The notes: a model not told the origin generated them from the sequence alone. DNA of 64,000 bases from a virus (IMGVR_UViG_3300025133_000032); one strand, 5' to 3'; shown: positions 6,692-62,492, numbered from the stretch's first letter. A program made the numbers and translations.

Positions 6692-8053
6692 CTATTTCTC
6701 CCAGCTGCGAGTTATTTTATTATATTTTCTTTTAGCCAACCTTCTATTGTTAAAATTCTCATCATCAAACATACTAGCCAGTATTTCAGGTGTAACATCC
6801 GCGCTACGTATGACATGCCGTCGGATCTTTGGCACTTCATCTTTTGAAAACTTGACAAGGATTTCATGAGGGAGTCTTTTTCTGCCGGCGAGTTCCAACC
6901 TTACAAAATCGTCCCCGGCATCTGCGAGTCGCATTAGAGTGCTATCTGACGTCGACCTATGCCGTACGACGGCACCCATTACACGGAAAAAACTGTCATC
7001 TGCCAGCTTATCAAGCATATCAGGTGTTGCATCTGCGTGCCGAGCTACCATCATCCGGTCGCTGTCATTTTTGCTCAAAACAAGTTTCTCCAACTTTGCC
7101 ATAGATATACTTTTAGCGTAAGACTTAACGTCATCTGATAGTTTATAATCTGCGGCATTGGTAAGCATAGACATACTATACCCGCCGCCATCCTCATAGC
7201 GATCATTAATCTGATTAAGCAAGCTAAAGTATGGTGCCGGGCGTAATCCCTTAACAAGCTTTTTAAATCTAGGAACCGACTTCACAGCTTTTTTAATCTC
7301 AACTAGGGCCGGATGTTCTTTTATTTTTGCCGCATGACGTTCGATCGCCGCAAGCATCTCTTTATGCTCATCACCGAATGCATCACTAAACTCGAATTTA
7401 TTGTTATCTTGATCGACTGTTATATCATTTTGGTTAGGCATCCTGATTTTTCCATATACTACGCCAATTGACCACTTTTTACTCTCGTCATGTTTGTCAA
7501 GAATATAGTAAAGAATAACATCATTAGTTATTATGTAACTATAGAATAAATTCTCACCCTTGGTTCTTGCAGTGCACCATGTCGTGCCGCGCCCAAGCGC
7601 GCACGAAGCATTCACGCTTCTTGGCATCAGAATGACAAAATTGTCTGATTCATAAACCTTATCAGCATCGCCAGATGCTGCCTTGAAACCTATCTTAGAG
7701 TCATCAGGAAGCTCTTCAAGCTTCCGGTGTAGATCCCCAGGGGTCTTATAGGAATTAATATCAGCGTCTTTACCTTTAAGTTTCTGTCTATTTTTAGCAT
7801 CATCAAATGATATGACCAAGGGAGAAATATCTCTTAAGGGTTCATTATTTGAACGTGAAACACGTTCAAGCCATGTAAGATATTGCTTTAGTTTGGCTTG
7901 CGGTAGAACTTGAAGCTTTTCAAATGCTTCATCCCACTCTTCCGGTGACCTACTAGATTTTTCCTTAATATTATCGATGACACCTTCGTGAAGAAGTCGT
8001 TCATTGAAGCATTTTGAAATAGCTTCACGAAGGTGTTTTATCTTTACAAGCAT
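6692..8053 (-). CDS. WCTA-domain (PcfJ-like) protein with about 4 LRV/HEAT-like 26-aa repeats (family copy 1)
   Basis: MPRS..ASCALGRGTTWCTA..GENLFY core shared with two other loci; 26-aa repeats. Confidence 0.8.
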   Translation of the reverse strand: MLVKIKHLREAISKCFNERLLHEGVIDNIKEKSSRSPEEWDEAFEKLQVLPQAKLKQYLTWLERVSRSNNEPLRDISPLVISFDDAKNRQKLKGKDADINSYKTPGDLHRKLEELPDDSKIGFKAASGDADKVYESDNFVILMPRSVNASCALGRGTTWCTARTKGENLFYSYIITNDVILYYILDKHDESKKWSIGVVYGKIRMPNQNDITVDQDNNKFEFSDAFGDEHKEMLAAIERHAAKIKEHPALVEIKKAVKSVPRFKKLVKGLRPAPYFSLLNQINDRYEDGGGYSMSMLTNAADYKLSDDVKSYAKSISMAKLEKLVLSKNDSDRMMVARHADATPDMLDKLADDSFFRVMGAVVRHRSTSDSTLMRLADAGDDFVRLELAGRKRLPHEILVKFSKDEVPKIRRHVIRSADVTPEILASMFDDENFNNRRLAKRKYNKITRSWEK

Positions 8054-8079
8054 TAAAGATAATTATAGGTTATATGTCA

Positions 8080-8454
8080 TTAATACCCGTCAGAAATTCT
8101 TCTGTGTAAAACAGTGTCTTTCCGTTTATACGCTTCAAAGAATTCATCAGGTGTGATACCGACGAAGATAAGAATTTCTAAAAAATATTTGTATGCATCA
8201 ACAAGTTCTTCTAAAAACTTGTCTTTATCAAACTCAATAACGTGCGTTTTTCTATGTGTCTTTGAGTTCTTTAACTCCTGTACAGCCTCGAATAGTTCAC
8301 CCATGCTATTAAATGCTAAATTTTTACACTCAATTTGACTTTGCTTTGCTGAAATATCTAATGGCCACTCTGGAAAATTCTCATGTTTTTCCTTGAGTCT
8401 TTCCATAAACTTTTCTTGCAAAGAAAACATCTGTTCTAGTTTGTCAGTCGTCAA
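8080..8454 (-). CDS. All-alpha NTP pyrophosphatase (dimeric dUTPase/MazG-like)
   Basis: GELFEAVQEL...EELVDAYKY...Y.RK.....RI..GY. Confidence 0.75.
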   Translation of the reverse strand: MTTDKLEQMFSLQEKFMERLKEKHENFPEWPLDISAKQSQIECKNLAFNSMGELFEAVQELKNSKTHRKTHVIEFDKDKFLEELVDAYKYFLEILIFVGITPDEFFEAYKRKDTVLHRRISDGY

Positions 8455-8720
8455 TGTAAGCTCGTTTCACTATCATCATCCATGCTCATCATATCTTCAA
8501 GATGATCAAACATGGCTTCGACGTCTTTTGCGTCTTTTTCCATGTACTCTGGCGTCAATACAAGTGTACCAGCACCCTCACTGGGCTCTAATACTAAGAG
8601 CCTAAAATGATCTGAGATGTCGGTTCCAGTCATTAGCCCAACTTGCACAAGTTTCACGATTTGTGCAATTACGCTATCATCAAGTCTAAAAATCCGTCTG
8701 TCCATATTCTGTGTATCCAT
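8451..8720 (-). CDS. Hypothetical protein
   Basis: Clean ORF with upstream -10 box, overlaps next gene. Confidence 0.65.
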   Translation of the reverse strand: MDTQNMDRRIFRLDDSVIAQIVKLVQVGLMTGTDISDHFRLLVLEPSEGAGTLVLTPEYMEKDAKDVEAMFDHLEDMMSMDDDSETSLH

Positions 8721-8761
8721 AATTTGTAATATACGTAACCCTACAGTGAATGTTTAAAACT

Positions 8762-9223
8762 TTAAGCGTCTATAAAAAAAGCCAATGGCTTTTCGCCGCG
8801 AGCCGATCGCAATAACGTTATCATATCTTTTCTAGGCACGATTGCTGTCGACACATCATCTATATTATGGCAAACAAACGATGTACCTTGCATTTCGCTA
8901 ATAAACGTATAATGGCTTAACACTTCTTGCGCACCTTCATCATACCAGTAGTATGTTAATATACAAGAACTTCCAGCCCTGATTCTATCATCTAGGTCTT
9001 GAATTTTAGTTGGTGCATCTGGTGTTACTGTCAAACGTTTATATGAGCTTATAGCATTAAGAACATCTATAGGCCAAGCACCTTCAGATACATTATACTT
9101 ACATTTTTTTGCTAACCTCTTATATGAATTCTTCATTGTAAACTTAAAGCCCGCCCACTTAAGTGCATTTAATACTGCTATTGGACCACATGATGTGTTA
9201 TTACGCTGTTTTACATATCTCAT
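8762..9223 (-). CDS. Peptidase C39-like papain-fold protein
   Basis: YVKQ....SCGP.A..NAL and downstream HY. Confidence 0.7.
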   Translation of the reverse strand: MRYVKQRNNTSCGPIAVLNALKWAGFKFTMKNSYKRLAKKCKYNVSEGAWPIDVLNAISSYKRLTVTPDAPTKIQDLDDRIRAGSSCILTYYWYDEGAQEVLSHYTFISEMQGTSFVCHNIDDVSTAIVPRKDMITLLRSARGEKPLAFFIDA

Positions 9224-9237
9224 ATAAAATTATATCA

Positions 9238-9669
9238 TTATGCGTTTTTATGTTTTATACGTTCAATTACTATTTTTCCGTCTGGAAAAACCAAGAAAAG
9301 TGGTTTACCTGCCTTTCTTGTGAACCCGATTGTCGCCCAAGTCCCTGATCTTTTGACCATCTCGAAGTTTGGAGGGCAAGCAATCATGACTTTCGCATCC
9401 TTGACAATTGCTCTGTTCCTCACCATAGGTGATACAGGCTCCGATAGCGGTACCGCATCAGAGTTAGCACGCATATTTTCTATTGTGCATGGTCTCATAT
9501 TTCTCTCAAAATTAAGTGCAGCACAGATGTCATTAAAATCATTGTCAGCGCCGATGCAATCTCCGTGCAGACCGACAGTGTCAGCGTCAAATTCTTTGAG
9601 TATTTTTGTTACACTACCTTTTTGTAAATCTGTCATTCCACTTCTGGTGCCAGTAAATCCAACTATCAT
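9238..9669 (-). CDS. SLOG-superfamily (DprA/YspA-like) nucleotide-binding protein
   Basis: VGFTGTR, HGDCIGAD, RNRAIV, SGTWATI. Confidence 0.7.
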   Translation of the reverse strand: MIVGFTGTRSGMTDLQKGSVTKILKEFDADTVGLHGDCIGADNDFNDICAALNFERNMRPCTIENMRANSDAVPLSEPVSPMVRNRAIVKDAKVMIACPPNFEMVKRSGTWATIGFTRKAGKPLFLVFPDGKIVIERIKHKNA

Positions 9670-10343: not shown

Positions 10344-10348
10344 TAATA

Positions 10349-10377
10349 ATTTTACATATTAATGTTAATTTGTTCAA
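10349..10377 (-). promoter_or_regulatory. Sigma70-like promoter for tmk
   Basis: TTGAAC-N17-TAAAAT, 5 nt before ATG. Confidence 0.65.
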
Positions 10378-12558: not shown

Positions 12559-12593
12559 ATTGATATTATATATGATATTGCTAATTTGATTAT

Positions 12594-12899: not shown

Positions 12900-12939
12900 T
12901 TATCACCTTATAGCGGGTCTTAAAATTTTTTGTCATTAT

Positions 12940-13266: not shown

Positions 13267-13271
13267 ATTTC

Positions 13272-13300
13272 ATTATAACACATATAAGAAGCTTTTGCAC
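13272..13300 (-). promoter_or_regulatory. Sigma70-like promoter
   Basis: GTGCAA-N17-TATAAT, 5 nt before ATG. Confidence 0.6.
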
Positions 13301-13314: not shown

Positions 13315-14427
13315 TTATTTCAACTGGCGTTTTTGTATTATACGGCCGGCAGCTCTTCTTATGCCTTCGTCTTTATCCTTTGCAAGAATTCTCAAAATTT
13401 CGATTGGTGTGGCAGGATTTGAAATTACAGCGTACCTTATACCTGCATATTCGTCTTTTGCAAGAATTCTCAAGGCGTCAGCAGGTGTATTTATTCTGTA
13501 TGCTATGTCTTCTCTTGTTACGAAATTTGGACTTTTTGATAATTTTATTACATTGTCGTTAAATACTTTTTCCATGTATGCCGTAACTTCCTGTGTTGAA
13601 TTCATCTTTTTATACTTTATTGATTCAAGAAAATAAGCTAAAGCATCGGGTCTAAAACCTTTAATAAGTTTCTTAAATCTGGGTACTGACGTCATTGCTT
13701 TCTTTACGTCTCTCAATGCTGGATGCTCTTTAATCTTTTTTGCATGATTATTAATTGCATCTTGTATGTCCATACTTTCTTCGTCAAAAACTTCTTGAAA
13801 ATCAAAAGCTTTATTATCTTGATTAACAGTTGTTTCGTTAGGCTTCGATGGCCGCACTTTTCCGTTTACTGTTCCTATCGACCACTTTCTTTTTTCATCA
13901 TGTTTGTCTAAAACATAAAAAAGAGTAACTTCGTCATCTATAATATTTCTATAGAATAGATTTTCGCCCTTAGTTCTTGCTGTACACCAGGTTGTGCCTC
14001 TTCCAAGTGCACAAGAAGCGTCCAAGCTTCTTGGCATTAAAACGACAAAGTTTTCTGATTCATAGACTTTGTCTACATCACCGCTTGCTGCCTCAAAGTC
14101 TATCTTAGAGCCATCAGGAAGCTCTTCAAGTTTCCGGTGCAAATCGCCGGGGGTCTTATAGATATTAATATCTGCGTCCCTACCTGTCAATTTCTTTCTA
14201 TTTTTAGCAGAGTCGAATGAAATAATGAGGGGTGAAATGTCTCTTAAGGGTTCTTGGCTTGATTGCGAAACTTTCTCTAGCCACATAAGATATTGCTTAT
14301 GTTTAGCTTGTGGAAGAACTTGAAGCTTTTCTAAAACCTCATCCCACTCCTCAGGTTGCCTGCTAGACTTTTCTTTAATGTCGTCAATGACACTCTCTTG
14401 CAAAAGGTGGCCGATGAAGCACCTCAA
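13315..14427 (-). CDS. WCTA/LRV-repeat protein (family copy 2, about 2 repeats); homology extends upstream to about 14487 without an ATG
   Basis: Core highly similar to 6692..8053; upstream in-frame IYIKVKQLREVISNHLTESDLR matches the family leader. Confidence 0.75.
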   Translation of the reverse strand: MRCFIGHLLQESVIDDIKEKSSRQPEEWDEVLEKLQVLPQAKHKQYLMWLEKVSQSSQEPLRDISPLIISFDSAKNRKKLTGRDADINIYKTPGDLHRKLEELPDGSKIDFEAASGDVDKVYESENFVVLMPRSLDASCALGRGTTWCTARTKGENLFYRNIIDDEVTLFYVLDKHDEKRKWSIGTVNGKVRPSKPNETTVNQDNKAFDFQEVFDEESMDIQDAINNHAKKIKEHPALRDVKKAMTSVPRFKKLIKGFRPDALAYFLESIKYKKMNSTQEVTAYMEKVFNDNVIKLSKSPNFVTREDIAYRINTPADALRILAKDEYAGIRYAVISNPATPIEILRILAKDKDEGIRRAAGRIIQKRQLK

Positions 14428-14508
14428 ATCACTTTCCGTAAGATGGTTTGAGATGACTTCTCTAAGTTGCTTAACTTTAATATAGATATTGACTAGTCTG
14501 CGTTTAAA

Positions 14509-16977
14509 CTATCCACAAGATTGCCAGCCGCAGGCAACACATAGAGGACAGCCTTCCTGATATGCAAATTTTGTTGCTGAGCATTGTGGGCAAGTCTTTA
14601 CAAGATTAGTTTCAGTGCCATCTTTTATATACGACTTCAACACTCTTGAAATACACTTTACAAAAGAAAACATATCTGCTTCTTTATCTTTCTGCAATTG
14701 TTCAACAACATACTGCATATTCGCACCATGACGCAAAGATAATGATATTAAACGTGTTGTTGATGAATAGTTCGGGTTATCAAATGACTCAGCAATATTC
14801 TTGATGAGAATAACATCATCACCCGTACCAATCTGCAAATCGTAAATAGAGTTCATAGTCTTTCTACTATTTTTAACTATGAACCCAGTATTATACTTTT
14901 TGGGAATTTCAACATACTTCGACAGGCCACCAAAAAGCTCATATGGCTTCTCTTTATAGAGACCAACTAAGACTGTCCACTCTTCGCCTCTGATTGTAAC
15001 ACGTTTGATATCACATGGAAGTTTTTCTGGGCGTTTTGGTGCACTATTATGTTTAAATGTGTCTGTAACATCATCTTTACTGACCAAAACACCAGTTCTT
15101 GAGCCATCTCTATAAATAGTTACTCCCTTGCATCCAGTTTCCCAACCTGCCATATAGATGTCTGCTGTTACATCAATGGGCGTATCTTTAGGAATGTTTG
15201 TCGTGTTACTAATTGAATGATCTACCCACTTCTGTGCTGCAGCTTGGACGTTTATCTTTGCCCTCCAATCAATATCATTTGATGTTGCCTTCCAGTAAGG
15301 TGATAAATTAACATCTTTTAGAGAATTCCCAGTAACTTCTGCCCATTTTGCATAACCATGATGAAAAACATCAAACTCCTGCCACTTGTCACCAAGCTCA
15401 TCAGTAAATGCTACTGGAGCATCTTGATCACTCTCAGAAATCTTTGCACGCCGGAGATAATTCAGCATGTACGCTGGTTCAACGCCTGAAGTGGTTTGCG
15501 TCATCAGTGATACTGTTCCACAAGGTGCTGTTGTATTACAAGCGATATTCCTGCGACCATACTTTTTCACAGAAGCTTCAAGTTCAGGATCAGCATCAAA
15601 AAGTTGCCTCAAGAATTCATGATTTTTCTCCAATTCATAGTCATGGATAGGAAAGGCACCACGTTCACTCGCAAGCGTCGAGGATGACTTGTAAGATGAC
15701 AAAGCAATAGCCTTATATATCTCACCGACCACAGAAATCGATGCATCAGAACCATACCTAAGATTCAATGACGCAAGTGTATCACCCAAAGCTGTAACGC
15801 CAAGTCCCGTCCTTCTGCCCTTAACAGCAAATGATTTAATAGAATACCATAAATCTAGTTCCTGCTGCTTTACCTGCATGGGTTCTGGATCAGCTTTAAT
15901 TTTTCTGATTATCTTATCGACGCATTCGATTTCCAGGTCAACCAAATCGTCCATGAGCCTTTGGGCTTTTTGTGTTACTTCATCAAACTTTTTAAAATCG
16001 AATGTAGCAGAATGTGTAAATGAGTTCTTTACAAATGAGAGAAGATTAATGACAATTAGCCTGCAAGAGTCATACGCCGATAGTATCACCTCCCCGCAAG
16101 GGTTCGTTGAGATAGACTTAAACCCGAAATCAGAATAAATATCTGCGGGTGAACGTCGAAGACAAGTATCCCAGAACAAAAGTCCAGGCTCAGCAAAATT
16201 ATGTGCTGCTTCTATCATTTCATCCCAGATCTCTTTTGCATCTACGTAAGAAGAAACCGTATGTGTAGCGTCCTTCTCGACAGGAAAGCGAAGCTGGACT
16301 TCCGTTTTGCATTTAACTGCAGTCATAAACTCATCAGAAAGTTTTATTGATATATTCGCACCAGTAACTTTCTTTAAATCATTTTTGATCTTAATGAAGT
16401 CCCTGATCTGCGGGTGGTGGCAGTCTATTGTAAGCATTAGTGCGCCACGGCGACCACCTTGAGCCACTTCCCTGCATGAATTCGAAAATCTTTCCATAAA
16501 GACCTCAATCCCATCAGTGGTAAGTGCAGCATTAGCTGTCCTCAGTCCTTTTGGCCTTATCGTAGAGATGTCAATGCCAACGCCACCTCGTCGCTTCATA
16601 ATCTGTACTTGCTCTTGATCAGCCTTTAGAATCCCTCCGTATGAATCATAAGGTTGCTCGATCACAAAACAATTCGATAAGGACTGCGTTTGATACTCAT
16701 TCCCTATCCCCGACATGGGGCTCCCTTGCGGGATGATATACTTAAAGTCTTTTAATAATGAGTAAATCTCATGCTCACTCATCGGGTTGGCATACTTTGC
16801 TTCGATTCTTGCAAATTCTCTAGCAAGGCGGTGATGCATATCATCTGGTGTATGTTCTAAAAGATTTCCGTTGGTGTCTTTTAAAGCATACTTACTAATA
16901 AATTTTTGTGCGGCAATCTCGTCGCCGCCAAAATACTCTAAAGACTTCTTTAGTGCAATGTCAAATACTGATGTCAT
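14509..16977 (-). CDS. nrdJ: Ribonucleotide reductase, probably class II (adenosylcobalamin-dependent), C-terminal Zn ribbon
   Basis: SLSNCFV, GGRRGA.M, TNPCGE, TAPCGT.S..TQTTSGVEP, GCKGVTIYRDGSR, C-terminal CxxC..EGC..CxxCG; no beta-subunit gene adjacent. Confidence 0.85.
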   Translation of the reverse strand: MTSVFDIALKKSLEYFGGDEIAAQKFISKYALKDTNGNLLEHTPDDMHHRLAREFARIEAKYANPMSEHEIYSLLKDFKYIIPQGSPMSGIGNEYQTQSLSNCFVIEQPYDSYGGILKADQEQVQIMKRRGGVGIDISTIRPKGLRTANAALTTDGIEVFMERFSNSCREVAQGGRRGALMLTIDCHHPQIRDFIKIKNDLKKVTGANISIKLSDEFMTAVKCKTEVQLRFPVEKDATHTVSSYVDAKEIWDEMIEAAHNFAEPGLLFWDTCLRRSPADIYSDFGFKSISTNPCGEVILSAYDSCRLIVINLLSFVKNSFTHSATFDFKKFDEVTQKAQRLMDDLVDLEIECVDKIIRKIKADPEPMQVKQQELDLWYSIKSFAVKGRRTGLGVTALGDTLASLNLRYGSDASISVVGEIYKAIALSSYKSSSTLASERGAFPIHDYELEKNHEFLRQLFDADPELEASVKKYGRRNIACNTTAPCGTVSLMTQTTSGVEPAYMLNYLRRAKISESDQDAPVAFTDELGDKWQEFDVFHHGYAKWAEVTGNSLKDVNLSPYWKATSNDIDWRAKINVQAAAQKWVDHSISNTTNIPKDTPIDVTADIYMAGWETGCKGVTIYRDGSRTGVLVSKDDVTDTFKHNSAPKRPEKLPCDIKRVTIRGEEWTVLVGLYKEKPYELFGGLSKYVEIPKKYNTGFIVKNSRKTMNSIYDLQIGTGDDVILIKNIAESFDNPNYSSTTRLISLSLRHGANMQYVVEQLQKDKEADMFSFVKCISRVLKSYIKDGTETNLVKTCPQCSATKFAYQEGCPLCVACGWQSCG

Positions 16978-48455: not shown

Positions 48456-50090
48456 TTATGTATACTCGACAACAAGGTTTGGGCACCCATAAATTTTGAC
48501 AACACCATTAGCAGCAGCAACATCTTTTTCACTTATTCCATTTGTTGCTCTGAACTTGAATCTGTCATATCTATTAGTAAAGTCTGTCCACCAAAATCGT
48601 GGTTTTGTTTTTGCTACTATTTTATAACCTGCAGCTTTATACCCTTTCCCATTTCCGTATCTCAAATCAATATACGAGATTAACCCTACTTTTCCGTCAT
48701 TAGTAGATATTTTAAATGCACATTTTGTAAGTCTTGATAAACCTCCAACGACTGTGCAATCTTTCTTAACAGCAAACCGAGCGACTTCATAAAATTTATC
48801 ATATTTTTTGTGAAAAGCACTTCGCAAAGAAATCGCAGCCATTAATTTATCTTTATGAAATAAACCAAATGCATATTTTGCCCTTACATCTCCATCAATA
48901 TGATTATTATCAAAAAAAGCTCTGCGCTCTTTTAATTTAATTTGCTTAATATTACATTCTCTAGCCCCAATTTTAGTTGCAGACAATCCAAGTTTATACT
49001 TTAGCATACTTTCAACTATATGTCTTTTGTTCTTCCATTCATCTTCAAAAATGTGTATAAGCTGCACACCCGCAGTATTACATATGTCTGTTTTTTTCAT
49101 TGCATAATCATAATTTAAAAATCTTTCTGAGTGCCAAAATAAACCGTCGTATTCTATAGCAAGTTTTTTACCAATTAAAATGTCAACTTCTTTTGGTTTA
49201 ATTAAAGTTCTATCAGATAACGTGACATTATTTTCAAAAGATTTTATGAATTCATATAAATCAAGCTGGCCCTTCGATTCTTTTGGATTGCAATTATGAC
49301 AAACTGGTGTTGTCTCTATCGTACCTAGTGTCTTAAAGCTTGAAACATTGCAGTTTAAACATTTAAACTCAAGTTTCGTAGTGTATTTACCTCTATATAC
49401 TTCTGGTGAAGTTATTAGCTCAAATCCATGCAGTCTAGATGTACGTTGAACTAATTCTGATATCTTCATTCGGCGGCCAGCTTCTCTATGAACATACCGA
49501 TCAGAGATTTTTTTACTCATTGCTAAAACTTTCGGATCAGAAGATTTTACAAGCCCTTTATTCCACGAAGTAAGAACACCCTCCGCGTATAATCTCTTCT
49601 TTGTCTCAGATATCTTTTTTGCTGATGCTTTAGCCTTGACTGGATCTTTAATTCTCCAGTCTAGTATCTCGCCCGCCTCGGCTTTTTTTGTGTATGTTTC
49701 ACTCGTCTTCTTTGCTGACTTAAACACCCTTTCATCAGTATTCTTAGTTAAACCGTCATTCCAAACTTTATATTTTCCGTCTTTATAACCTTGCGCTCTT
49801 TTGGCTATCATTTTTGCTTGTACAGTTTTATCAGCAAAACAAGAATCAATTCTTGCATTGTGTCCACGCACGTACTTTGAAAGATAACCCTTTTTCCACC
49901 CTGCCCACTTAATCGGCTCTGAGCATTCTGAAGAACATTGACAAGTTGGAACTATCCCATCTAAATACAGATCGACATATTTTGATTCGTAATCAGAAAT
50001 TTCATGATCTGTATTTAGGTGGACAAGAAACCTTTTCTCTTGTTTATATTGTTTTGAGCAAATATAACAAACTATAGCTTTTTGTACCAT
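48456..50090 (-). mobile_element. Second Hef/Vsr-like putative homing endonuclease
   Basis: Same architecture as 1609..3204: C2H2, WN(D/K)GL, EVDI....KLAIEYDGLFWH, IHIFEDEW, RFWWTDF. Confidence 0.75.
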
Positions 50091-50768: not shown

Positions 50769-51023
50769 ATGACGTCACTTCGTGTTTGCTTATTGGAAAC
50801 TCCAGAAATCTCTATCAAACATCTCATGCATCTGGACACTGGAGTGTTTATACATTATGCTATTTCATTCCCCAAAACAGAAGGCTTTTATGTCTACAAA
50901 ATCTCACCTTATATTTCTAAAAAAATAGAGACAGCGTATAGAAGACATAAATCAATCGGCAAAAAAGCTGTAGCAATTAAGAAAAATGCTCAGGGTGAAC
51001 CTTTTAAAGTTAAATCACTTTAA
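50769..51023 (+). CDS. Small basic protein
   Basis: ATG 5 nt after ATATTTA; MTSLRVCLLE. Confidence 0.55.
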   Translation: MTSLRVCLLETPEISIKHLMHLDTGVFIHYAISFPKTEGFYVYKISPYISKKIETAYRRHKSIGKKAVAIKKNAQGEPFKVKSL

Positions 51024-51131
51024 ATCTACAATAGTAGCTTCCGTTAGAAGCTGCGAAATAAAGTTCCGAAGAGTACCCGCAGCAAGCTGGTTTGAAATGG
51101 CGGCGCGGACATCTTTGACCCTAACAAGCAT
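51015..51131 (-). pseudogene. Leader-only copy of the WCTA/LRV family (38 aa; below ORF-track cutoff)
   Basis: MLVRVKDVRAAISNQLAAGTLRNFISQLLTEATIVDLK* vs MLIKVKELRKVISNQLAENNLRSFVSQLLTEA at 62492. Confidence 0.75.
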
Positions 51132-51145: not shown

Positions 51146-51547
51146 TTAAGCGTTGACGCCAGATAATCTTTCTCTTGGCTTTTGTGGTACTTTTTTACCC
51201 TGCACGATTGGAATAACTTTTCCCTCACTTTCTTGTTTTTGTAATACAGCTAATAGTTTTCTAGATGACCATTCCAGATCGCTGTGTCTTTTTCCCCTAC
51301 CTTTAAGCACGACTGTATTTACATCATACTGGCGTATAAACTTTCTCCAATCATCCCGCTTCCATTTCTTTGAATCATCAACAAGCCCGATTCCATGGAC
51401 GGGATCAATAATACGCTGGACACCAGTTTCATCAAAAACTACATGGACTGTATCATGTGATTTAGGAGCTGGGGCATCTTGCGTCATGGCACGCATGTCC
51501 ATAGCTTCGCTTATTAAAGACCTTAATTGGCTAAATTTAATTTTCAT
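51146..51547 (-). CDS. Hypothetical protein with MKIKFSQLRSLISE leader
   Basis: ORF coupled to upstream gene. Confidence 0.65.
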   Translation of the reverse strand: MKIKFSQLRSLISEAMDMRAMTQDAPAPKSHDTVHVVFDETGVQRIIDPVHGIGLVDDSKKWKRDDWRKFIRQYDVNTVVLKGRGKRHSDLEWSSRKLLAVLQKQESEGKVIPIVQGKKVPQKPRERLSGVNA

Positions 51548-52455
51548 TTGTTATCACCCAGGCGGTTATTTTTGATTATCTCTTGTGCCATCTCGAGGTG
51601 TCTTTGGACCTCAACTCTGCGAGCCATTGGGACAAGCCCTACAAGCTTTTTTACACGTTCTAACTCAGTTTCGATAGATCTCATTTTCCGTATAGCATTA
51701 CCATCAGGTTTCTTTGGTGTTAGATAGTCTTCATTCATCTCACGAATTAATGTTTTAAGTTCACCATAAGTAATTTTTGCCACAGACTCACTTTTAAGTG
51801 ACGGTACAGCGGATAATATTTTCGCGACATCACTCATCATATTTTTATCTAATGCAACCATGAGCACTTTTTTCAATGTTTTCTTATATCTAGGATCTGA
51901 TTTCGCTTTTGCAATTAAAGGCGGAATAATCTTTCGCAACTCTGCATGAGGTAAGTCGCCCCATGTCGGTTCTTTCATACTTCTTGCTTTATCTGACAAA
52001 GCAACATCACCACGAGCTGAGGGTCGCCCGGTCATCTGCACGTCATTCGCAACAGCATGAACTGAAGCGCCAGGGTTATCTGGACCGCTGGCAGTTCTAT
52101 ACCTTTGTGCTCCAGTTTGGATCTCTTTCCCACGTTGCGCAGGAGACATCCAGACTAACTCTTTCTGTTGAGCATGATGCAAGTTACCGTACTCCCACCA
52201 GTCAAGAGGCTTTGGTTTGCGAAGTTGCCCAAAAACAAGTTTCTCAGGGACGTTTGTCCAGATTTTTGTAGGCCTATTTGAATCATAAACAAACAGCAGG
52301 AACATCCCATGTGTTTGAAATGTTCCATGATTAACATCATCGCCCAGTCGCCCGTAAGCAATTGCCTTCAGCCGTTTAACTTCCTCATGCGGAATATTAC
52401 TTGTCGTTCCAGCTTCATTTATTATGTGTTTAATTTCACCGATGGTCAATTTCAT
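51544..52455 (-). CDS. Hypothetical protein with two leader-like motifs
   Basis: MKLTIGEIKHIINE and internal KITYGELKTLIRE. Confidence 0.65.
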   Translation of the reverse strand: MKLTIGEIKHIINEAGTTSNIPHEEVKRLKAIAYGRLGDDVNHGTFQTHGMFLLFVYDSNRPTKIWTNVPEKLVFGQLRKPKPLDWWEYGNLHHAQQKELVWMSPAQRGKEIQTGAQRYRTASGPDNPGASVHAVANDVQMTGRPSARGDVALSDKARSMKEPTWGDLPHAELRKIIPPLIAKAKSDPRYKKTLKKVLMVALDKNMMSDVAKILSAVPSLKSESVAKITYGELKTLIREMNEDYLTPKKPDGNAIRKMRSIETELERVKKLVGLVPMARRVEVQRHLEMAQEIIKNNRLGDNK

Positions 52456-52590: not shown

Positions 52591-55500
52591 TTATGCATCT
52601 GAGCCGGCATTTGACACGACGAAGTCAACGCTAATGACTTCAGCAACTCTTGTGGGTTCGACGAATATCTTACCCCTGATAGTGTTATTTTCAATATCAG
52701 CCTGAGTTGTTGTTGTAGTATCAATTATAACTTTGAAACGTGCTACACCTTGTTGCTCTTGAATTCTCTGTAAGACAGGGTTAACAAGACTAGAGAACCG
52801 GTTTAGTGTTGATTCTCTATTAGGCTCAAAAATAATTTGATTTGAAATTGAACGTACTTGACGTCTGATTTCAATCATAAGTCTTCTGACATTTACTCTA
52901 TCAACTGCAGATTGTGCAGCATGCAAAGTTTTTTGCCCAAATACAACAACCCCATCACTCCCAGGGAATGAAACAAGCGGGTTGATACTAGCGTCTTGTA
53001 GTGTATCCATATTAGAACGATTCAATAATAACGAAGCATTATCCGTAGTTTGAAGTGCTCCTCTAACGAATCCTGCTGGAGCATTCCATGGGAATCCTAC
53101 AGAGTCATTCAAAGAGAATGCTCCCAATACTGCAACAGACGGCGGTACTTGCGTTGGCAAATTCGTGAATGGGTTATTAATAACCACATCTGGGAAATAT
53201 GCTGCAGCAAAGCTGCTATCCAAACCTCGGCCGTTAAACTGCGTCGCAGTATTTGTGACATGAACGTTTTGCACAGATGCTGTAACAACGGCATTGATTT
53301 CATCACGCTCTTCTACATCCATGATATACAGAGCATCGAATCTATCATTTTCGACTGTATCAACACCAGCATCGGATACGACTGAATGTCTAATTCCGGG
53401 AATCGCAAGAAGCTTGATATCGACGTCAGTCGTATCACCCATTATCTGCAGTCCCTTTCTATACGACTTCACAGTTGAACCGTTATTTAGATGTCTTGCT
53501 GAATCATCCATTTCTTGCTTCACAGCAATATTGGTTAGCTCATTAGACTCTTTATCGAATATATTCGTTCCATCATAACCACCCTGGACAAAGAAGTTGA
53601 ACTTAGCGATCGTTCTAACAGTTAAATCTCCGAAGTCTGTAGCAACGCTTAACGCTCTCGTCTTGTTCGCAGCATTGGCGCTGATTTGACCATTTCTTAC
53701 ATACGACATGCTTGCAAGTTCTTTTGCATCAACTATACCGTTCGATGCTGTTCTAACCTGGATTCTGTCTAGTGAGAAAATGTTATTATTATATAAATCA
53801 CTATCTAAAACAGTTCCATTAGAGTTAGCAACACCTGCGTTTTCCCCGACCTGGACATTTCTCAATGATGTCTGGAAATTTGGGAAATACTTAGTCAAAC
53901 TTCTGATTGTCTTATTCTCAACTTTCGATGAGTTAGGCTCCGTAAGTGATGTTTTTTGTGTAAACTGGACTCCCCAATAAAGTGACTTATTGACAATGAC
54001 CTTTGGATCAATTCCTTGTGCAATATTATCTCTAAATGGGATTGGTAATTCGACGACCCTCTTTAAGCCTTCGTTGCCATAGTCAGTCAAGCCTGCAGAA
54101 GCAGCAGTAGAACCACTAATTGCCGTTAGAGGATCAGAGCCTGAGGTTATTAAGTGTGCAGGCCCTCTAAAGCCAATGGGTAATGATGTAGGGCTTATCT
54201 CTTCGTCGTCAACCCTTTGATCAATCGCAACCCTAATTAGATTTGAAACATTAGGATATTTGCCTTCAACAACAAGCTTTTGGCCAGATGAATTTTTGTC
54301 AAAATCATAATATGCATTCAAATCGCCAATCCGGCGCCCGATATAGTTTTGTGATGTAGGATCAAGGTTAAGCCCGGAAAAGCTTTCCAAGATTACACGG
54401 TTCTCATCAGTATCACCGAACCTTCTTACAAGAAGGTCAAACGTACCGAATTGGTCATCATTAACGTTTGACTTTGCAATATTCTGAATTGATATCTTAT
54501 ATTTCTCGTTAGACTCGCGGCCATCCGACAGCATAAAGACTCTAAACAGATTTATTGGGTTTCCACCAAACTTTTGTGAAATTACTGTAGGCGATGAAGG
54601 AGTCGAATACCTATCTTCAAAGTTTTCGTAATTTGGTGCTGTAGTTGCGCCAGTATTTCTAGGTGCAGAGCCTGTAAGCAAAAATGCTACTGGCTCTTTT
54701 GATGCAGCCGAAGCAGCATAGTTACCAGCAGCGATGACTCCAGTACCCGTTACTGCAGCATATGATGGATGAATATCATAGTGTGAGTAAAGATAATGGC
54801 CAGCAACCTCAATCTTCGTAGGGTCTTGGTTTAATACATTACCGAGGTAATTAGGTGCAGTCTGATCAAACGATGCTGTTATAACATTCGGATATGATGC
54901 ATCATTTCCCTTATGACCATTAAGCAATAATACAAAGTTTTGATTTCCGCCTAATAAATCAACAGAGCCCGTCATAGCCCCATTTGGTCCTGCAGACGTT
55001 GCGACCTGCGCGACAGCAGGGGCTCCAGATGGAGACACTGAGGATGAAAGCATTGGTACAACACCAGATGCTGCCATCACTATACCCCTAACAATCGGGA
55101 CTGCGACAGCAACAGTTGCAGTTCTGTGTGCAATACCTGCATCAGAGAAAATGGATGAACCATTTGACTCAGACATGTATGTTCCCAAAATGTGCATTCT
55201 GCCTTTTGGACCAGTGCTATTTGCGTATGCGTTATCACCGAGGTTACCATTAGCTCCCGGAATCTGTTGCCCGACAACAAACCCAGCACCTTCTACGCTA
55301 CCAAGATTATTTCCAGTTGTAAGCCTCTTTTCTCCGCGACCTGCGCCAAGAACTCTTAAGAAGGTTACAGCCCGAGCATTACGTAACCATTCAGCTACAG
55401 CAATCGGCCCGAACTTTGTTCCATCAGAACCGCCGAATTTAACAACGAAATCCGGAAGTGATCCAACAGTAACTGGAACGAACGCAGGACCACGCTCTGC

Positions 55501-55608
55501 GGCACCAATAACACCGGCAGGAACGCCTACAGGCGTTACATTTTGCGGACCGGTTAAATCTATTTCTCTGACGCTTACGCCAGGTGATCTTCCACTAAGT
55601 TCGACCAT
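52591..55608 (-). CDS. Tail sheath protein (paralog 2)
   Basis: SPGV..REID, GPAFVP, PW.APAGF.RG, INP, GQKTL, DRVNVRRL. Confidence 0.92.
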   Translation of the reverse strand: MVELSGRSPGVSVREIDLTGPQNVTPVGVPAGVIGAAERGPAFVPVTVGSLPDFVVKFGGSDGTKFGPIAVAEWLRNARAVTFLRVLGAGRGEKRLTTGNNLGSVEGAGFVVGQQIPGANGNLGDNAYANSTGPKGRMHILGTYMSESNGSSIFSDAGIAHRTATVAVAVPIVRGIVMAASGVVPMLSSSVSPSGAPAVAQVATSAGPNGAMTGSVDLLGGNQNFVLLLNGHKGNDASYPNVITASFDQTAPNYLGNVLNQDPTKIEVAGHYLYSHYDIHPSYAAVTGTGVIAAGNYAASAASKEPVAFLLTGSAPRNTGATTAPNYENFEDRYSTPSSPTVISQKFGGNPINLFRVFMLSDGRESNEKYKISIQNIAKSNVNDDQFGTFDLLVRRFGDTDENRVILESFSGLNLDPTSQNYIGRRIGDLNAYYDFDKNSSGQKLVVEGKYPNVSNLIRVAIDQRVDDEEISPTSLPIGFRGPAHLITSGSDPLTAISGSTAASAGLTDYGNEGLKRVVELPIPFRDNIAQGIDPKVIVNKSLYWGVQFTQKTSLTEPNSSKVENKTIRSLTKYFPNFQTSLRNVQVGENAGVANSNGTVLDSDLYNNNIFSLDRIQVRTASNGIVDAKELASMSYVRNGQISANAANKTRALSVATDFGDLTVRTIAKFNFFVQGGYDGTNIFDKESNELTNIAVKQEMDDSARHLNNGSTVKSYRKGLQIMGDTTDVDIKLLAIPGIRHSVVSDAGVDTVENDRFDALYIMDVEERDEINAVVTASVQNVHVTNTATQFNGRGLDSSFAAAYFPDVVINNPFTNLPTQVPPSVAVLGAFSLNDSVGFPWNAPAGFVRGALQTTDNASLLLNRSNMDTLQDASINPLVSFPGSDGVVVFGQKTLHAAQSAVDRVNVRRLMIEIRRQVRSISNQIIFEPNRESTLNRFSSLVNPVLQRIQEQQGVARFKVIIDTTTTTQADIENNTIRGKIFVEPTRVAEVISVDFVVSNAGSDA

Positions 55609-55645
55609 CGTTTATCTCATCTCCTAAGGTTAACCCTTAAGCCCC

Positions 55646-58600
55646 TTACTCTGCGAAACTTACGCCCGCGTTCGTTATAATAAAATCAATCGCAACAAAC
55701 TCTACAGTTCTGGTTGGTACCAGTTCAATACGCCCATTAAGTTTATTATTCTCAATGTCATCCTGCGTATTGTTAGTTTCGTTCATAACAACTTTGAATT
55801 TCTCTATTCCTGCCTGCATTTGTACAAGAGCTAGCCTAGGTGTAATTTGATTTACCCAGCGTGCCCTTGTTTGAGGCGTGTTCTGTTCAAATACGAATCC
55901 TGCTCTCGAAATATCAGAAACTATTCTCTTTACTTCAAGTAACATTCTTCTAACATTCACTCTATCAAGTGCCGACTTTGCTTGCTGCATTGTCTTTTGC
56001 CCAAATATTACGAATGTGGGCGAAGTTCCCTGTCTAGGGAAGTTTGCGATAGGATTAATATTTGACTCTTGTAATCTATCTCGATCACCTTTATTCAATC
56101 GTACATCAGTATTCGAAACAAAATCAAGAGCACCACGATTGAATCCAGCTGGAGCAAACCATGGGAATCCGACCTTATCATTATACGCCAACGCCCCAAG
56201 CGCAGCTACTGAAGGCGGTACTTTTACCTTTTTGCTTGTCACACTATCTGTAATTACGACATCTGGGAAATACGCAGAAACATAGTTATTATCAAGTGCA
56301 CGAGTATCAAGTTGTTCTGATGTTTTCTCTACATCAGGTTTAGTACTATCAGTATCAAATAATCTTGTAGTGTTCTCGTCGTATCCAACAAGGTCTTGTA
56401 AATAAATGGCGAGACCATACTCTTTGATTCTAGTTGCAGCATGATCTGTGATAAAGGAATCCCTTATTCCTGGAATCGCAAGGATATTTGTGTTAACAGT
56501 TAGTTCATCTGTCATAATCCTTGATGCTGCACGATATGAGAATACTGTATTGTTTTCTTGACCAGCCCCCGCGATATTAGTCGTTAAACCAGGTGACGTG
56601 TAAGCAGAATTTGCGCCTCCACCTGTATCACTAGATGATGCTTTATCATTTAATCTTGATGCATCAACATCTAATATATTAACGCCATCATAGCCGCCAG
56701 CCATAAAGTTAGTAAACTTTGTGAAACTAGAGAACTTATTAAACTCTGCTGATGACGTTAGGTTTACCAATGTACCAAGCGTAACCCTGTTAACGGCTAG
56801 GCTATCAACCACTCTGTAATCATTAGGGTTTGGACTTCCGTTTCTAATGTATGCAGTTTCACGCATATGCTCTGCTGCAGACGCTGTAACAGCAGCAACA
56901 GATGTGTTACTAAGTGCGACCTTCGCTAGCGAAAATTTGTTATTGCAAAAAGTATCTGCGCTTGATCCAGTAACCAATGCATCGAGCTTCGAAATTCCCA
57001 AGAACTTCGAGTATGACTTGACTAATGGGTTAATTACTGAAGATACATTTGGGTTTAGGATAGCATCTGTGATTGAACCTGTAGCAGGTACTTTCGTAAA
57101 CTTAACTCCCCAATATAATCTAGAGTCGACGATTTCTGCAGCACCTGGTTGTCCAACAAAACTTGATGCCGTAGTCGTTATTCCCTTTGTTACCTTAAAT
57201 GTATGAGGAACTGGGGGAACAATAGATGATGTACCAAATAACGCCCCGATTCCAACGCCGGTCAATCTACGTGATACGCTTGTATCAGCAGCTGTATCAA
57301 CCAGCATATCATTAGTATTTAATAAAGACTGTCCCCTAAACCCAAATGGAAGTGCTGTTGCAGGAATATATCTTTTTTCTATGTCTGGATTAATTACAAT
57401 TCTAACCAACGCAGACTTATTAGGGAATCTTCCTGTCACTCTTACGCGACGTTCATCTTCTCTATCAGTGTCGAAAACAAACTCTGCCTTCATATCACCG
57501 ATAACGGCAGCGACATAATTCTCGCTGCTTGGGTCCAATGAACATACTGGATATTGTTCTAAAATTTCTGGCTTAAGGTCAGTGTCATTAAATGATCTTA
57601 CCTGTACTGCGAATGTTCCATATTCATTTGCTGGATCAACAGATTTTCTAACATTTGCAATTGAAATCTTGTACTTATCATTTGCAAATTTTCCATCAGA
57701 AATTGACTCAAAGCTAAATAAGTCATATTCTTTCGTTCCATATGGTTGCGAAATAAAATCAGTCGTTGAGGGTGTTTGGAACCTTGTATCAAACCTACCG
57801 TATACATCTCTGAATGTTTCTGATGTATCACCTGACGTCGATGATGTGTTTGTTGTTCCTGATAGAACCATAACAGAGCCAGTCGTAGCAGACACTGGTG
57901 CTAATTCGTCTTCAACACCGAAGTCAGCGTATAACAAATGCTCTTCAGTATTGAACTTTGTAGGGTCGGTATTTAATATCTTCCCAATATAGTTGTCGCT
58001 TGTAGGATTAAATGATGCAGTAAGTACCCTAATAGCTGTTAAGCCATCAGATGTTGCATAATTTGGTGTCGAAGACGAAATAACAAGCTTAAACATCCCG
58101 TCCATTTCGCCAGCTGCAGCCAATGTAGCAACATCATCATGATCAGATATACTGGGTACAACTTCCTGAGCGCCATCAAGGACCATCATTCTTGTTCCAG
58201 ATGCGACCATAATCATAGCACGGATAAGGTTGACGTCAGTTAACCCGAATGAGTCATTATCAGTAAATACTGGATAACCAAACGCCTCATTCGCTCGTGG
58301 CGTATGTCGAGCAGCTAAGAACATCGTCCCGCCATTATCTCTAGCCCATACATCTTTACCTGCCGATGCTGCTAGCGAAAAGCCAGCATTTTTTACTGTG
58401 CCCTGTGTTCTAGTTACTTCGATATCAGTGACAGTATCATTTGCACCTGCTCCCAATACTCTCGTGTATGTAACCGCAGACCTGTGCTTTAAAAACTCAT
58501 TTACTGCGTAGGGCCCAAACCTCTTTGAGTTCATTTGCCCAAACTTCGATTTAAAGTCTGGAATTGAACCCACTGTAACTGGGACAAATGCTGGACCCTT

Positions 58601-58711
58601 TTCTGCTGTACCAATGATACCTGCAGGAGTCCCTAGTGGCGCCTGTTGGCGCTGTGTTAAATCGATTTCTCTTTCAAAAAACCCCGGTGATCTAAAAGTC
58701 TGCTCTGGCAT
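55646..58711 (-). CDS. Tail sheath protein (paralog 1)
   Basis: SPGFFEREID, GPAFVP, PWFAPAGFNRG, GQKT.Q...SALDRVNVRR; start likely MPEQ after SD aggag. Confidence 0.92.
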   Translation of the reverse strand: MPEQTFRSPGFFEREIDLTQRQQAPLGTPAGIIGTAEKGPAFVPVTVGSIPDFKSKFGQMNSKRFGPYAVNEFLKHRSAVTYTRVLGAGANDTVTDIEVTRTQGTVKNAGFSLAASAGKDVWARDNGGTMFLAARHTPRANEAFGYPVFTDNDSFGLTDVNLIRAMIMVASGTRMMVLDGAQEVVPSISDHDDVATLAAAGEMDGMFKLVISSSTPNYATSDGLTAIRVLTASFNPTSDNYIGKILNTDPTKFNTEEHLLYADFGVEDELAPVSATTGSVMVLSGTTNTSSTSGDTSETFRDVYGRFDTRFQTPSTTDFISQPYGTKEYDLFSFESISDGKFANDKYKISIANVRKSVDPANEYGTFAVQVRSFNDTDLKPEILEQYPVCSLDPSSENYVAAVIGDMKAEFVFDTDREDERRVRVTGRFPNKSALVRIVINPDIEKRYIPATALPFGFRGQSLLNTNDMLVDTAADTSVSRRLTGVGIGALFGTSSIVPPVPHTFKVTKGITTTASSFVGQPGAAEIVDSRLYWGVKFTKVPATGSITDAILNPNVSSVINPLVKSYSKFLGISKLDALVTGSSADTFCNNKFSLAKVALSNTSVAAVTASAAEHMRETAYIRNGSPNPNDYRVVDSLAVNRVTLGTLVNLTSSAEFNKFSSFTKFTNFMAGGYDGVNILDVDASRLNDKASSSDTGGGANSAYTSPGLTTNIAGAGQENNTVFSYRAASRIMTDELTVNTNILAIPGIRDSFITDHAATRIKEYGLAIYLQDLVGYDENTTRLFDTDSTKPDVEKTSEQLDTRALDNNYVSAYFPDVVITDSVTSKKVKVPPSVAALGALAYNDKVGFPWFAPAGFNRGALDFVSNTDVRLNKGDRDRLQESNINPIANFPRQGTSPTFVIFGQKTMQQAKSALDRVNVRRMLLEVKRIVSDISRAGFVFEQNTPQTRARWVNQITPRLALVQMQAGIEKFKVVMNETNNTQDDIENNKLNGRIELVPTRTVEFVAIDFIITNAGVSFAE

Positions 58712-58785
58712 ATTATACAAGCTCCTGTCTATTGGCTACCATGCTATCAATTAATTATGATTGTCATGACATAAAATTTCTTTTA

Positions 58786-60021: not shown

Positions 60022-60033
60022 CTGTATACCTCA

Positions 60034-60708
60034 TTAGCTCTCATCATCATAAAATCCAGAACTTGTTTTACGCCCCTGTGAACCCTTTGGTGAAACCTCT
60101 TTTGGCCTAGAGATAGGACGTTCAAGCACACCTTTCTTTTGAAGGTCTCTAACATCGCCTGTTTCGCCTATCCTTATGTCTGTAGGGAAACCTCTCTGTT
60201 GTACAAACGTTTCTTGTACTGCATCAGGATCGGAGTATGCCTCGCTTGTAGGACCGAACAGCTTAGAAACAAACTGTGTCTTTCTTGCTTGCTTGCCGAA
60301 TATATGCCAACCGACTGTGTGTTCAATTTCGCCATATACATTATTAGTCGTAACATACTTTGTTATTTCAAAAAATACATCACCAAAACTGAAGAAATCG
60401 CCCTCGGATAGCTCGATCTGTTTATCTAGAAGATCACGTCCATGAACCCAAACTTCAATGTCAAACATAGTCTCAGATCCAAACTCACTTGTTTTGACGA
60501 CTTCAGATTGATATTCAACCATCGCATCAAGAGCTATTGGTGTATCAAATATTTTTTCTGGAGACTCCATGTATATATCATGGACTTTCGTCTTAAGTTC
60601 ATTAATAGAGAAATAATAAATCTTTTGGCCAATGACATCTTTAATTATTTCTTTAGTAATATCACTAATGAAATCAACTTCTCTTGGAGTTATAAACAAG
60701 CGTGCCAT
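60034..60708 (-). CDS. Neck/head-closure protein (gp14-like)
   Basis: IGQKI.Y, HD.Y.E...K.F, EGDFF.FG..FFEI. Confidence 0.65.
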   Translation of the reverse strand: MARLFITPREVDFISDITKEIIKDVIGQKIYYFSINELKTKVHDIYMESPEKIFDTPIALDAMVEYQSEVVKTSEFGSETMFDIEVWVHGRDLLDKQIELSEGDFFSFGDVFFEITKYVTTNNVYGEIEHTVGWHIFGKQARKTQFVSKLFGPTSEAYSDPDAVQETFVQQRGFPTDIRIGETGDVRDLQKKGVLERPISRPKEVSPKGSQGRKTSSGFYDDES

Positions 60709-60753
60709 CGTTAGTAATAGATATGACAGCCAACAGCAGATTATAGTTTATGG

Positions 60754-62492
60754 TTATAGCAAATTTTCGCTTGTGACCATAAAATTCTTTTCTAAATTAT
60801 ATTTTGCCCATCCTCTAATCATTGCATGCTTATCATTTGCAAGAGCTGCCACAATCTCTTTGGGTGTGTGTCTATTAAATGCCACAGAAATTCTTACGTT
60901 AACTGATCTATCTTTTGCAAGAGCAGCAAAATATCCAGGCTCCAGGGATTTACTTTTAGCTATCTCTGACCTTACTGCTGCTGCCCTGTCCTTCATTAGA
61001 ACTTTTAAAGTTTTAAGAGAGATGCTATTATTCGATGCCAAAGCAATTCTTACTTCTTTAGATTTGTCATTTACAAGAAGGTCTAAAATATGAGGTGCTA
61101 TACTCGGGCTACCCGCGACACTCTGTCTTACTTTTGTACTTTCGTCATTCATCAAAAGCTTCAAAGTTTCCTTCGGGGTATTAGGGTTACTTGGTAAGTA
61201 GCTCCTTACAACTTCACTTTCATCATCTACAAGAAGTTTTAAAGCTCCAGGTGGTGTATTGTCATTATTGCTTATTGCGCCCCTTACGCGCCAATCTTCA
61301 TCTTTTGCAAGGTTCATTAGGATTTTGGGTGATATCTTCTTACTACGAGCTACCATTCCCCTTATTTCTGCGTCTGTATCATTCATTAGGTTGCCTAAGG
61401 TCTCTGGTGAGGTATAGCGATTAAGTGCTACTGCAAATCTTACCTCTCTATCTTCATCTTTTGCAAGGCGCTCTAAAACTTCTGTATGTTTATTTTGCTT
61501 TATGGCTGCGGCCCTGCGGTCACTAGGATCAGCACTCTTTGACATTTTTATTGCTTGCACACTCGAGTATTCATTAATATATTCTTGAACATCATTAGAT
61601 AAGTGAAGAGCATGTCGGTGGCCAATCGCATTAAGTAAAGCGAAATATGCTGGTGGTCTAAGGCCATTAGTGAGCTTTTTAAACCTAGGAACCGACGAAA
61701 CAGCTCTTTTGACGTCTGCTAGCGCTGGATGTTCCCCTATTTTTCTTGAGTGACTTTCAATTGCAGTAAGAATACTTTTTTCCTCTACTTTAAAGACTTT
61801 CTTAAAATTAAATGTTCCGTTGTTCATATTAACAGTAATGCCGCCATATCCTGGGCCTTGAACTTTCCCCTGTATTGTTCCAATTGACCACTTTCTTTTC
61901 TTGTTGTTCTTGTCGAAAACATAATAAAGAATTATGTTACCTGCAAGAACATAACTATAGAATAAATTTTCGCCTTTAGTTATTGCAGTGCACCATGTTG
62001 TGCCGCGCCCAAGCGCGCACGAAGCATCCAAACTTCTTGGCATCAGAACAACAAAATTTTCTGATTCATAAACTTTGTCAGCATCGCCAGATGCTACTTC
62101 AAAGTTTATCTTAGAATCATCCGGAAGCTCTTCAAGCTTCCGGTGCAAGTCACCAGCTGTTTTGTAACCGTTGATGTCAGCATCTCTTCCTTTTAATTTT
62201 TGGCGACTCTTTGCAGAATCAAAAGAAATGACCAAGGGAGTAATGTCTCTTAAAGGTTCTTGATTTGAACGTGAAACACGTTCAAGCCATTGAAGGTATT
62301 GTTTTAGCTTAGCTTGAGGTAGAACTTGAAGTTTTTCGAAAACTTCATCCCATTCTTCTGGAGAGCGATTTGACTTTGCTTTAATGTCATCAATGCAGCT
62401 TCAGTTAGAAGCTGCGAAACGAAACTTCGAAGATTATTTTCTGCAAGCTGATTTGAGATAACTTTTCGAAGTTCTTTGACTTTGATTAGCAT
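60754..62492 (-). pseudogene. WCTA/LRV-repeat protein (family copy 3, about 9 repeats), 1-nt frameshift near 62395
   Basis: Leader ..SQLLTEA then -1 frame IDDIKAKSNRSPEEWDEVFEKLQVLPQAKLKQYL, continuous with 60754..62235. Confidence 0.8.

Follow-up and report, generated by a model that had tools for sequence, protein, structure and literature searches.

The internal proteins of bacteriophage T4 are the classic phage proteins injected together with the DNA to disarm the host, and to our knowledge only a handful of them have been characterised. The T4 protease gp21 cuts after L/I-X-E and removes propeptides of 7 to 65 residues, the first 10 residues of IPIII are sufficient for capsid targeting, and the internal proteins of T-even phages form a diverse set that has only the leader in common (PMC9026906; PMC3012670). 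A gene family with comparable features was analysed in a 64,000-nucleotide stretch of viral DNA (IMGVR_UViG_3300025133_000032), referred to as the window, which represents bases 7-64006 of a 308,593-bp marine metagenome contig. Its members combine an N-terminal leader, a conserved core, designated here the 'WCTA' domain, and a variable array of LRV repeats. On the evidence presented below, we lean towards regarding the products as internal (ejection) proteins that a T4-like jumbo phage packages into its head.

All long open reading frames (ORFs) of the window are located on the minus strand. Profile matches in the window comprise a family-B-type DNA polymerase, HNH homing endonucleases, ribonucleotide reductase, thymidylate synthase, two tail-sheath paralogues and a gp13-type neck protein. 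Elsewhere on the contig, a T4-type portal with inteins, a large terminase, an S77 prohead protease and a Gp23 capsid protein are encoded, the protease (PF03420, Peptidase_S77) being flanked by Portal_T4 and Gp23. Since the head genes are of the T4 type and megablast of the region against deposited phages gave no match, the genome carrying the family is, judged by its gene content, that of an uncultured T4-like jumbo myovirus. Based on protein look-ups and on loci fetched from the contig, the following copies and remnants of the family were recorded:

6692-8053, minus strand: copy A, intact ORF of 453 amino acids (aa); leader aa 1-23, core to about aa 290, about four degenerate LRV repeats at aa ~330-430
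13315-14487, minus strand: copy B, full-length homologue without ATG; about 2.5 LRV repeats
60754-62492, minus strand: copy C, leader (ATG at 62492) and body in different frames; nine LRV repeats and a cap
51018-51131, minus strand: leader-only relic, ORF of 38 aa with the complete double leader and seven further residues, then a stop
588-625, minus strand: core relic, short and intergenic (..NSYKTPGD / SKIDFEA..), with an internal loss of 11 codons
outside the window, same contig: copy D, 487 aa
outside the window, same contig: copy E, 539 aa
outside the window, same contig: copy F, 540 aa, beside a DnaE fragment
outside the window, same contig: stump, 109 aa, N-terminal part

In total, six long copies and three relics are present on the contig. 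The family that an earlier note had proposed from the window alone, dispersed in several copies in which the core is conserved and the LRV array varies, is thus borne out genome-wide. Translation and tblastn agree on the three long paralogues A, B and C, which match each other at E-values of 1e-128 to 1e-142; their overall identity of 55-59% rises to about 70% in the first ~290 aa. All three exceed the cut-off of the Pfam LRV model (PF01816; 21.6 bits), scoring 27.2 bits (E = 4e-6) for A, 21.8 bits (E = 2e-4) for B and 78.1 bits (E = 2.5e-22) for C. A hidden Markov model (HMM) of the repeats detected about four degenerate units in A, about 2.5 in B and about ten in C (nine and a cap), close to the four, two and nine counted previously. 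Likewise, the description of one copy as intact (A), one as lacking its ATG (B) and one as frameshifted (C) agrees with the sequence. The leader-only copy, formerly placed at 51015, corresponds to the 38-aa ORF, which shows 78% DNA identity to copy C over 63 nt (E = 2e-9). The internal fragment is located at about 588-625 and not at 567; with a blastn E-value of 5e-5 to paralogue F it is probably, despite its shortness, a real and ordered relic.

The leader is the first feature pointing to packaging. Of 73 aligned homologues, 70 have a residue at the column where the leader ends, and in 69 of them this residue is a Glu, with L/I/F-x before it and G, D, A or S after it. About 90% of the 73 homologues possess such an [L/I/F]-x-E leader, and its length varies from 7 to 35 aa, counted from the Met. 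In the phage studied here the leaders are doubled and offer two L-x-E sites, which are L-R-E and L-H-E in copy A. Copies C, D, E and F, the stump and the leader-only ORF have an L-R-E-type site (V-R-A in the leader-only ORF) and an L-L-[TSQ]-E site. By its sequence, the leader of the family matches the pattern of gp21 cleavage and capsid targeting known from T4. In T4, a change of the Glu to Asp prevents processing yet leaves targeting intact. A second line of evidence is provided by relatives. EST35_0205 of phage PA5oct belongs to the family (E = 7e-34 to the family HMM) and is annotated 'structural protein, ESI-MS/MS', that is, as detected by electrospray ionisation tandem mass spectrometry. 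In a 296-kb relative, the family gene lies downstream of portal, S77 and Gp23 genes on the same strand. The delivery with the virion envisaged in the earlier note thus gains support from the near-universal leader, the S77 gp21-type protease gene of the genome and the virion annotation of the PA5oct homologue.

Leaders of similar appearance were also seen outside the family. The gene in the scaffold position after S77 begins with a look-alike leader, and two unrelated proteins encoded directly upstream of the leader-only relic (window 51146-52455, minus strand) have similar amphipathic leaders ending in I-S-E|A and I-N-E|A; these two may be further capsid-targeted cargo. A leader HMM applied to non-family proteins gave no significant match, the look-alikes at 51146-51547 and in the scaffold-position gene reaching E-values of 0.4-0.6.

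If the products are packaged, the following course of events can be envisaged. Transcription of each copy would take place late and start from an ATA-N-(T/A)-TA element situated shortly before its ATG. The amphipathic leader would act as a capsid-targeting sequence and, as motif and context suggest, bring the protein into the prohead core, where the S77 gp21-type protease would remove the leader after [L/I]-x-E; motif and protease gene are seen in the sequence, the cleavage is predicted. The mature protein, consisting of the conserved domain of ~230-260 aa and the LRV/HEAT solenoid, would then stay in the head and enter the cell with the DNA. There, the variable solenoid might pick a host partner, and the 'WCTA' domain might act on this partner or anchor to it. 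The likeliest, though speculative, purpose, by analogy with T4 IPI and Alt, would be early host takeover or counter-defence. Of these steps, packaging into the head is reasonably supported.

Several points weigh against this reading. A host target and a link to defence would be drawn entirely by analogy, with IPI and Alt and with a PcfJ gene located beside an AcrIIA9-family gene in pCF10. No enzymatic fold was recognised in the core, as Foldseek against the PDB gave nothing at E <= 0.001 and GNAT-like structures reached a Z-score of about 5 only. Some homologues, for example CcrBL9 gp486 and P0165, have no leader, so that the domain is not bound to packaging. The conserved Glu might also be no more than a part of an N-terminal helix of the fold. 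Finally, copies A and B are located amid nucleotide-metabolism and replication genes, not head genes. Such a neighbourhood, shared by copy F, and the leaderless homologues, together with one homologue among small early-type genes of a siphovirus, would also suit unpackaged, cytoplasmic accessory proteins, which act in infection after their synthesis in the cell and in which the L-x-E segment is part of the fold. We consider this unlikely, because the leader, in spite of its variable length of 7-35 aa, has the same Glu as its last residue, immediately adjoining the domain, as is typical of a removable propeptide, because the PA5oct homologue is annotated as present in virions, and because the family gene resides in the head-neck module in relatives and, in the case of copy C, also here.

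The upstream regions provided information on expression. Two related motifs were considered, the strict heptamer ATA(T/A)(T/C)TA and the looser element ATA-N-(T/A)-TA. In the window as a whole, the heptamer is not enriched (62 found, 71 expected), but 5 to 9 nt upstream of ATGs it was found five times with 0.35 expected. The element precedes the ATGs at 8053, 23880, 44527, 60708 and 62492 and is also present in loci L001 and L002. For copies A and C it is located as follows:

8060-8066, minus strand: ATAATTA element of copy A, 6 nt upstream of the ATG, no Shine-Dalgarno sequence
62500-62506, minus strand: ATATTTA element of copy C, 7 nt upstream of the ATG

Among the eight leader-bearing copies, six have ATA-N-(T/A)-TA at position -13/-14, and none of these six has a Shine-Dalgarno sequence. 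Copy B and the leader-only ORF show no such element at the equivalent position. Where the element is present, the arrangement suggests a late promoter giving rise to leaderless or near-leaderless mRNA; for copy A, whose ATAATTA looks like a late promoter, the 5' leader of the transcript would be very short or absent. Other genes, among them the sheath and baseplate-size genes, have clear GGAG-type sites.

The core proved to be widespread. Its profile detected 3700 representative clusters (50% identity) at E <= 1e-3 and 652 at E <= 1e-10. No Pfam model covers it in the three window copies and the homologues scanned, PHROGs matches of the family are solely of 'unknown function', and its neighbours in the ESM Atlas are 94-100% viral. 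A single-protein scan of IMG/VR yielded no match, and searches of PDB sequences with two profiles gave chance or repeat-driven matches only. Judged from these searches, the core defines a large, almost wholly viral, undescribed family, which extends beyond this phage. Among the 73 aligned sequences, the only invariant residues are Trp, Cys and Asn (W159, C160 and N168 of copy A); around the W-C motif, Pro, Ser, Gly and two Thr reach a conservation of 90% or more. In homologues the core precedes LRV/HEAT, ankyrin, pentapeptide or WG repeats, and the earlier idea of retargeting by variable repeats fits this fusion to other repeat types. The core also occurs two to five times within single giant multidomain proteins of 1000-3300 aa; one protein of 3332 aa contains two copies of it together with three true PcfJ domains and a topoisomerase IB core. 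The number of copies per phage is seven in Salicola phage SCTP-2, six in the phage studied here and one in PA5oct-like phages, and one Caulobacter siphovirus has a single copy without repeats.

These distributions bear on the question whether the proteins, if packaged, are directed at the host at all. They could instead be purely structural or organisational head components, condensing DNA or scaffolding the core, with the solenoid binding DNA or core proteins and without host-directed activity. The leader resembling a capsid-targeting sequence, the S77 protease and the virion evidence would be the same in this case, the scaffold-position gene begins in a similar way to the family leader, and some homologues are automatically named 'AlkC' by pipelines of the Joint Genome Institute (JGI); HEAT-like repeats are able to bind DNA. 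A conserved structural part, however, should not vary in copy number between one, six and seven and in tail type between LRV, ankyrin, pentapeptide and WG repeats, nor should disabled copies be tolerated, and the occurrence of the domain in giant proteins beside PcfJ and topoisomerase IB modules is equally out of place. A purely structural function therefore appears improbable to us.

To obtain information on the fold, structure models were calculated. A first model from 6 sequences was poor, with a predicted local distance difference test (pLDDT) value of 57, and was discarded, whereas the AlphaFold model from 73 sequences reached 93.7. It predicts an N-terminal helical subdomain, an alpha/beta subdomain and a helical linker. 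Despite this confident model, the Foldseek search of the PDB remained without a hit at the threshold given above. In VIA-align, many GNATs were aligned to ~95 residues of the alpha/beta part at Z-scores of 4-5.3 and root-mean-square deviations of 4-5 A, which is below a trustworthy level, and the Foldseek probability for the GNAT match was at most 0.15. In the model, residues ~88-206 align in the order strand-helix-helix-strand-strand-strand-helix, but the C-terminal half of the GNAT fold is, in our reading of the secondary structure, apparently replaced by helices. Of the 'GNAT-like' designation in the earlier note, a weak resemblance in arrangement (Z ~5) persists, without significant PDB support. 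Against viral models, Foldseek returned family members and, more weakly, more than ten phage PcfJ-like models with E-values of 3e-3 to 0.1.

Regarding the age of the family, synonymous divergence (dS) is saturated in pairs of paralogues (1.1 to >2.9), and the ratio of non-synonymous to synonymous divergence (dN/dS) of the core is 0.07-0.17, including pairs with B and C. Recent gene conversion among the paralogues was rejected, since no recent conversion tracts were found and the longest identical run does not exceed 48 nt. Hypervariability of the repeats at the strain level was rejected as well; the variants of B, C and D on a second JGI contig (152,957 bp) differ by at most one residue. Saturated dS, low dN/dS of the core, lack of long identical tracts and near-identical variants together indicate that the family is, as far as sequences can tell, old and conserved, and that the lesions are recent. 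The mobile or rapidly turning-over family suggested previously is not supported by these data. The relics and the different position of the family gene in the 296-kb relative do show occasional loss and relocation, the three relics representing past losses. The six paralogues are old duplicates that selection has maintained, presumably because their targets differ.

The same data are relevant to the idea of a selfish mobile gene family, for instance a homing-type nuclease using helical repeats for DNA recognition and spreading among intergenic sites. Insertion between unrelated genes, three relics, two of them ~1-2 kb or less from HNH homing-endonuclease genes, a gene position unlike that in the relative, and a topoisomerase IB domain co-occurring in one giant protein could be taken as signs of such an element. 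On the other hand, the paralogues are ancient and under strong purifying selection, near-identical copies and long conversion tracts are missing, and the copies on the second contig are virtually identical. No nuclease family was matched in Pfam or PHROGs, none was prominent in fold searches, and a homing element has no use for a capsid-type leader that is conserved. This explanation is accordingly very improbable.

The lesions of copies B and C were inspected individually. Copy C, located between the gp13-like gene and the next neck gene, lost 1 nt near 62395-62399. The lesion is letter-for-letter identical in two further assemblies and contigs of two runs show no indel; therefore, it is not an assembly slip. 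A programmed frameshift was rejected, as there is no slippery heptamer at GAA-GCT-GCA, and a deletion of 1 nt is the simplest reading. Copy B aligns with copy A from residue 1 and has ATC/ATT at the codons equivalent to ATG. A TTG at 14427 behind GGAAAG is a possible start and would give an 11-aa leader ending in L-Q-E. Thus, copy C was recently disabled and copy B perhaps likewise. The ORF of copy B runs in frame, without another stop, from the TAG of the gene for the large subunit of ribonucleotide reductase (14509-16977); a readthrough fusion of both is conceivable, but unlikely.

A number of observations concern other genes of the phage. Copies D and E flank a gene for a 191-aa protein and are located ~4 kb from the terminase gene. 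A DnaE-type polymerase III alpha is encoded in separate genes outside the window (L002:537-7612), a finger domain of 320 aa and an HHH_6 part of 351 aa, ~5 kb apart; the family stump precedes the first piece and copy F comes after the second. Besides S77, a ClpP-type protease gene was detected between the capsid gene and gp13 (L022:15689-16273, outside the window). The two tail-sheath paralogues of ~1005-1024 aa are neighbours (window 52591-58720, minus strand). Two paralogous genes for proteins of ~530-545 aa (window 1609-5384 and 48456-50090, both minus strand) match homing-endonuclease PHROGs (3339 and 559) and, more weakly, a Mom-like PHROG. One homing-endonuclease-like gene shares 4 nt with the 3' end of the DNA polymerase ORF, a hint that the polymerase gene was split or invaded. 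Furthermore, at least two, perhaps three, small adjoining ORFs between 639 and 1612 (listed as window 17-1386, minus strand) repeat a motif of the ..LHREDGPA.. type with a MORN/YwqK-like look; the motif is also found outside the window at L002:5854-6165.

The family thus apparently represents a large, almost wholly viral class of cargo of modular construction, in which a leader and a constant domain are joined to a solenoid that can be exchanged. Should packaging be confirmed, ejected proteins of uncultured T4-like and jumbo phages could be sought by a ready rule, and the PcfJ domain, unexplained in plasmids as well as in phages, might become easier to approach. Cultured test systems would then be PA5oct with gp205 and Salicola phage SCTP-2 with its seven copies.

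Among described domains, PcfJ deserves comparison first. Both share a strand, Pro, a helix, Gly, four residues and [H/W]-C-[V/T]-[G/A], followed by a helix and a strand, and the strand-Pro-helix-Gly-x4-[H/W]-C correspondence is also visible inside P0095. In the nearest named ESM cluster, 25% of the members have PcfJ, and both domains are neighbours in the 3332-aa protein. The PcfJ model PF14284 (membership cut-off 25 bits), which does detect true PcfJ with 115.9 bits in P0095, matches none of the 73 members at E <= 0.1 and nothing in four family-carrying phage genomes at E <= 10. Comparison by hhalign superimposed the [H/W]-C region, but the E-value of 0.17 was not significant, the PcfJ alignment being shallow and of little diversity. 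In addition, the motif is Trp-Cys in the family and His-Cys in PcfJ, and the family has an extra N-terminal helical subdomain. The term 'PcfJ-like' used before is therefore backed weakly by structure, motif and co-occurrence, and not by PF14284; remote kinship, not membership, is the probable relation. The type PcfJ gene of pCF10 (L018:15874-17984) adjoins a gene annotated as Cas9 inhibitor of the AcrIIA9 family, and an ArdA antirestriction gene is annotated ~16 kb from PcfJ. A literature search on PcfJ function produced nothing useful. In a jumbo-phage review, PcfJ, pentapeptide and ankyrin repeats are not mentioned, and its lone passage on HEAT repeats refers to an RNA polymerase subunit.

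From this kinship a more far-reaching proposal can be derived, which we regard as speculative and rather doubtful. The 'WCTA' domain and PcfJ would form one undescribed superfamily of Cys-dependent effector domains, which arrive with invading DNA and are aimed by solenoids at host defence or housekeeping proteins, the six paralogues being a multi-target anti-defence arsenal. In phages, entry would be from the head by means of the capsid-targeting leader; on plasmids, the genes would be found near anti-restriction or anti-CRISPR genes, as in pCF10. LRV, ankyrin, pentapeptide and WG repeats would serve as interchangeable tails.

Two further groups of proteins resemble parts of the family. With LRV/HEAT proteins (PF01816, PF25591, PF02985) it shares the tails, which are bona fide LRV repeats of ~26 aa; here, however, a viral domain carries the array, which ranges from ~2.5 to 10 units among paralogues. 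Polyvalent proteins, for which delivery with the invading DNA has been proposed as the underlying logic (Iyer et al. 2017, PMC5512222), resemble the giant proteins in which the family domain occurs two to five times with PcfJ, topoisomerase IB and InPase modules. The copies in this phage are not polyvalent, but consist of a single domain and repeats; PcfJ and related terms were not found in the main text of that article.

The closest counterparts remain IPI, IPII, IPIII and Alt of T4. Common to both are a short N-terminal propeptide ending in L/I-x-E, a genome that also encodes a T4-type head module and an S77 gp21-type protease, a leader that is conserved although the mature parts behind it are diverse, and a polymorphic set of genes that look dispensable. 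For the family in this phage, packaging and cleavage are predicted from the genes alone. The likeness is drawn without direct comparison of mature parts, that of the family having no PDB chain similar in sequence. Differences from the T4 proteins are the larger mature part of 360-540 aa with a conserved domain and a solenoid, the leader that is often doubled, with two L-x-E sites, and the dispersal of the copies over the genome. Most likely, the family is a variant of the packaged internal proteins of the T4 type, with packaging predicted from sequence features, and is built on an undescribed, widespread domain.

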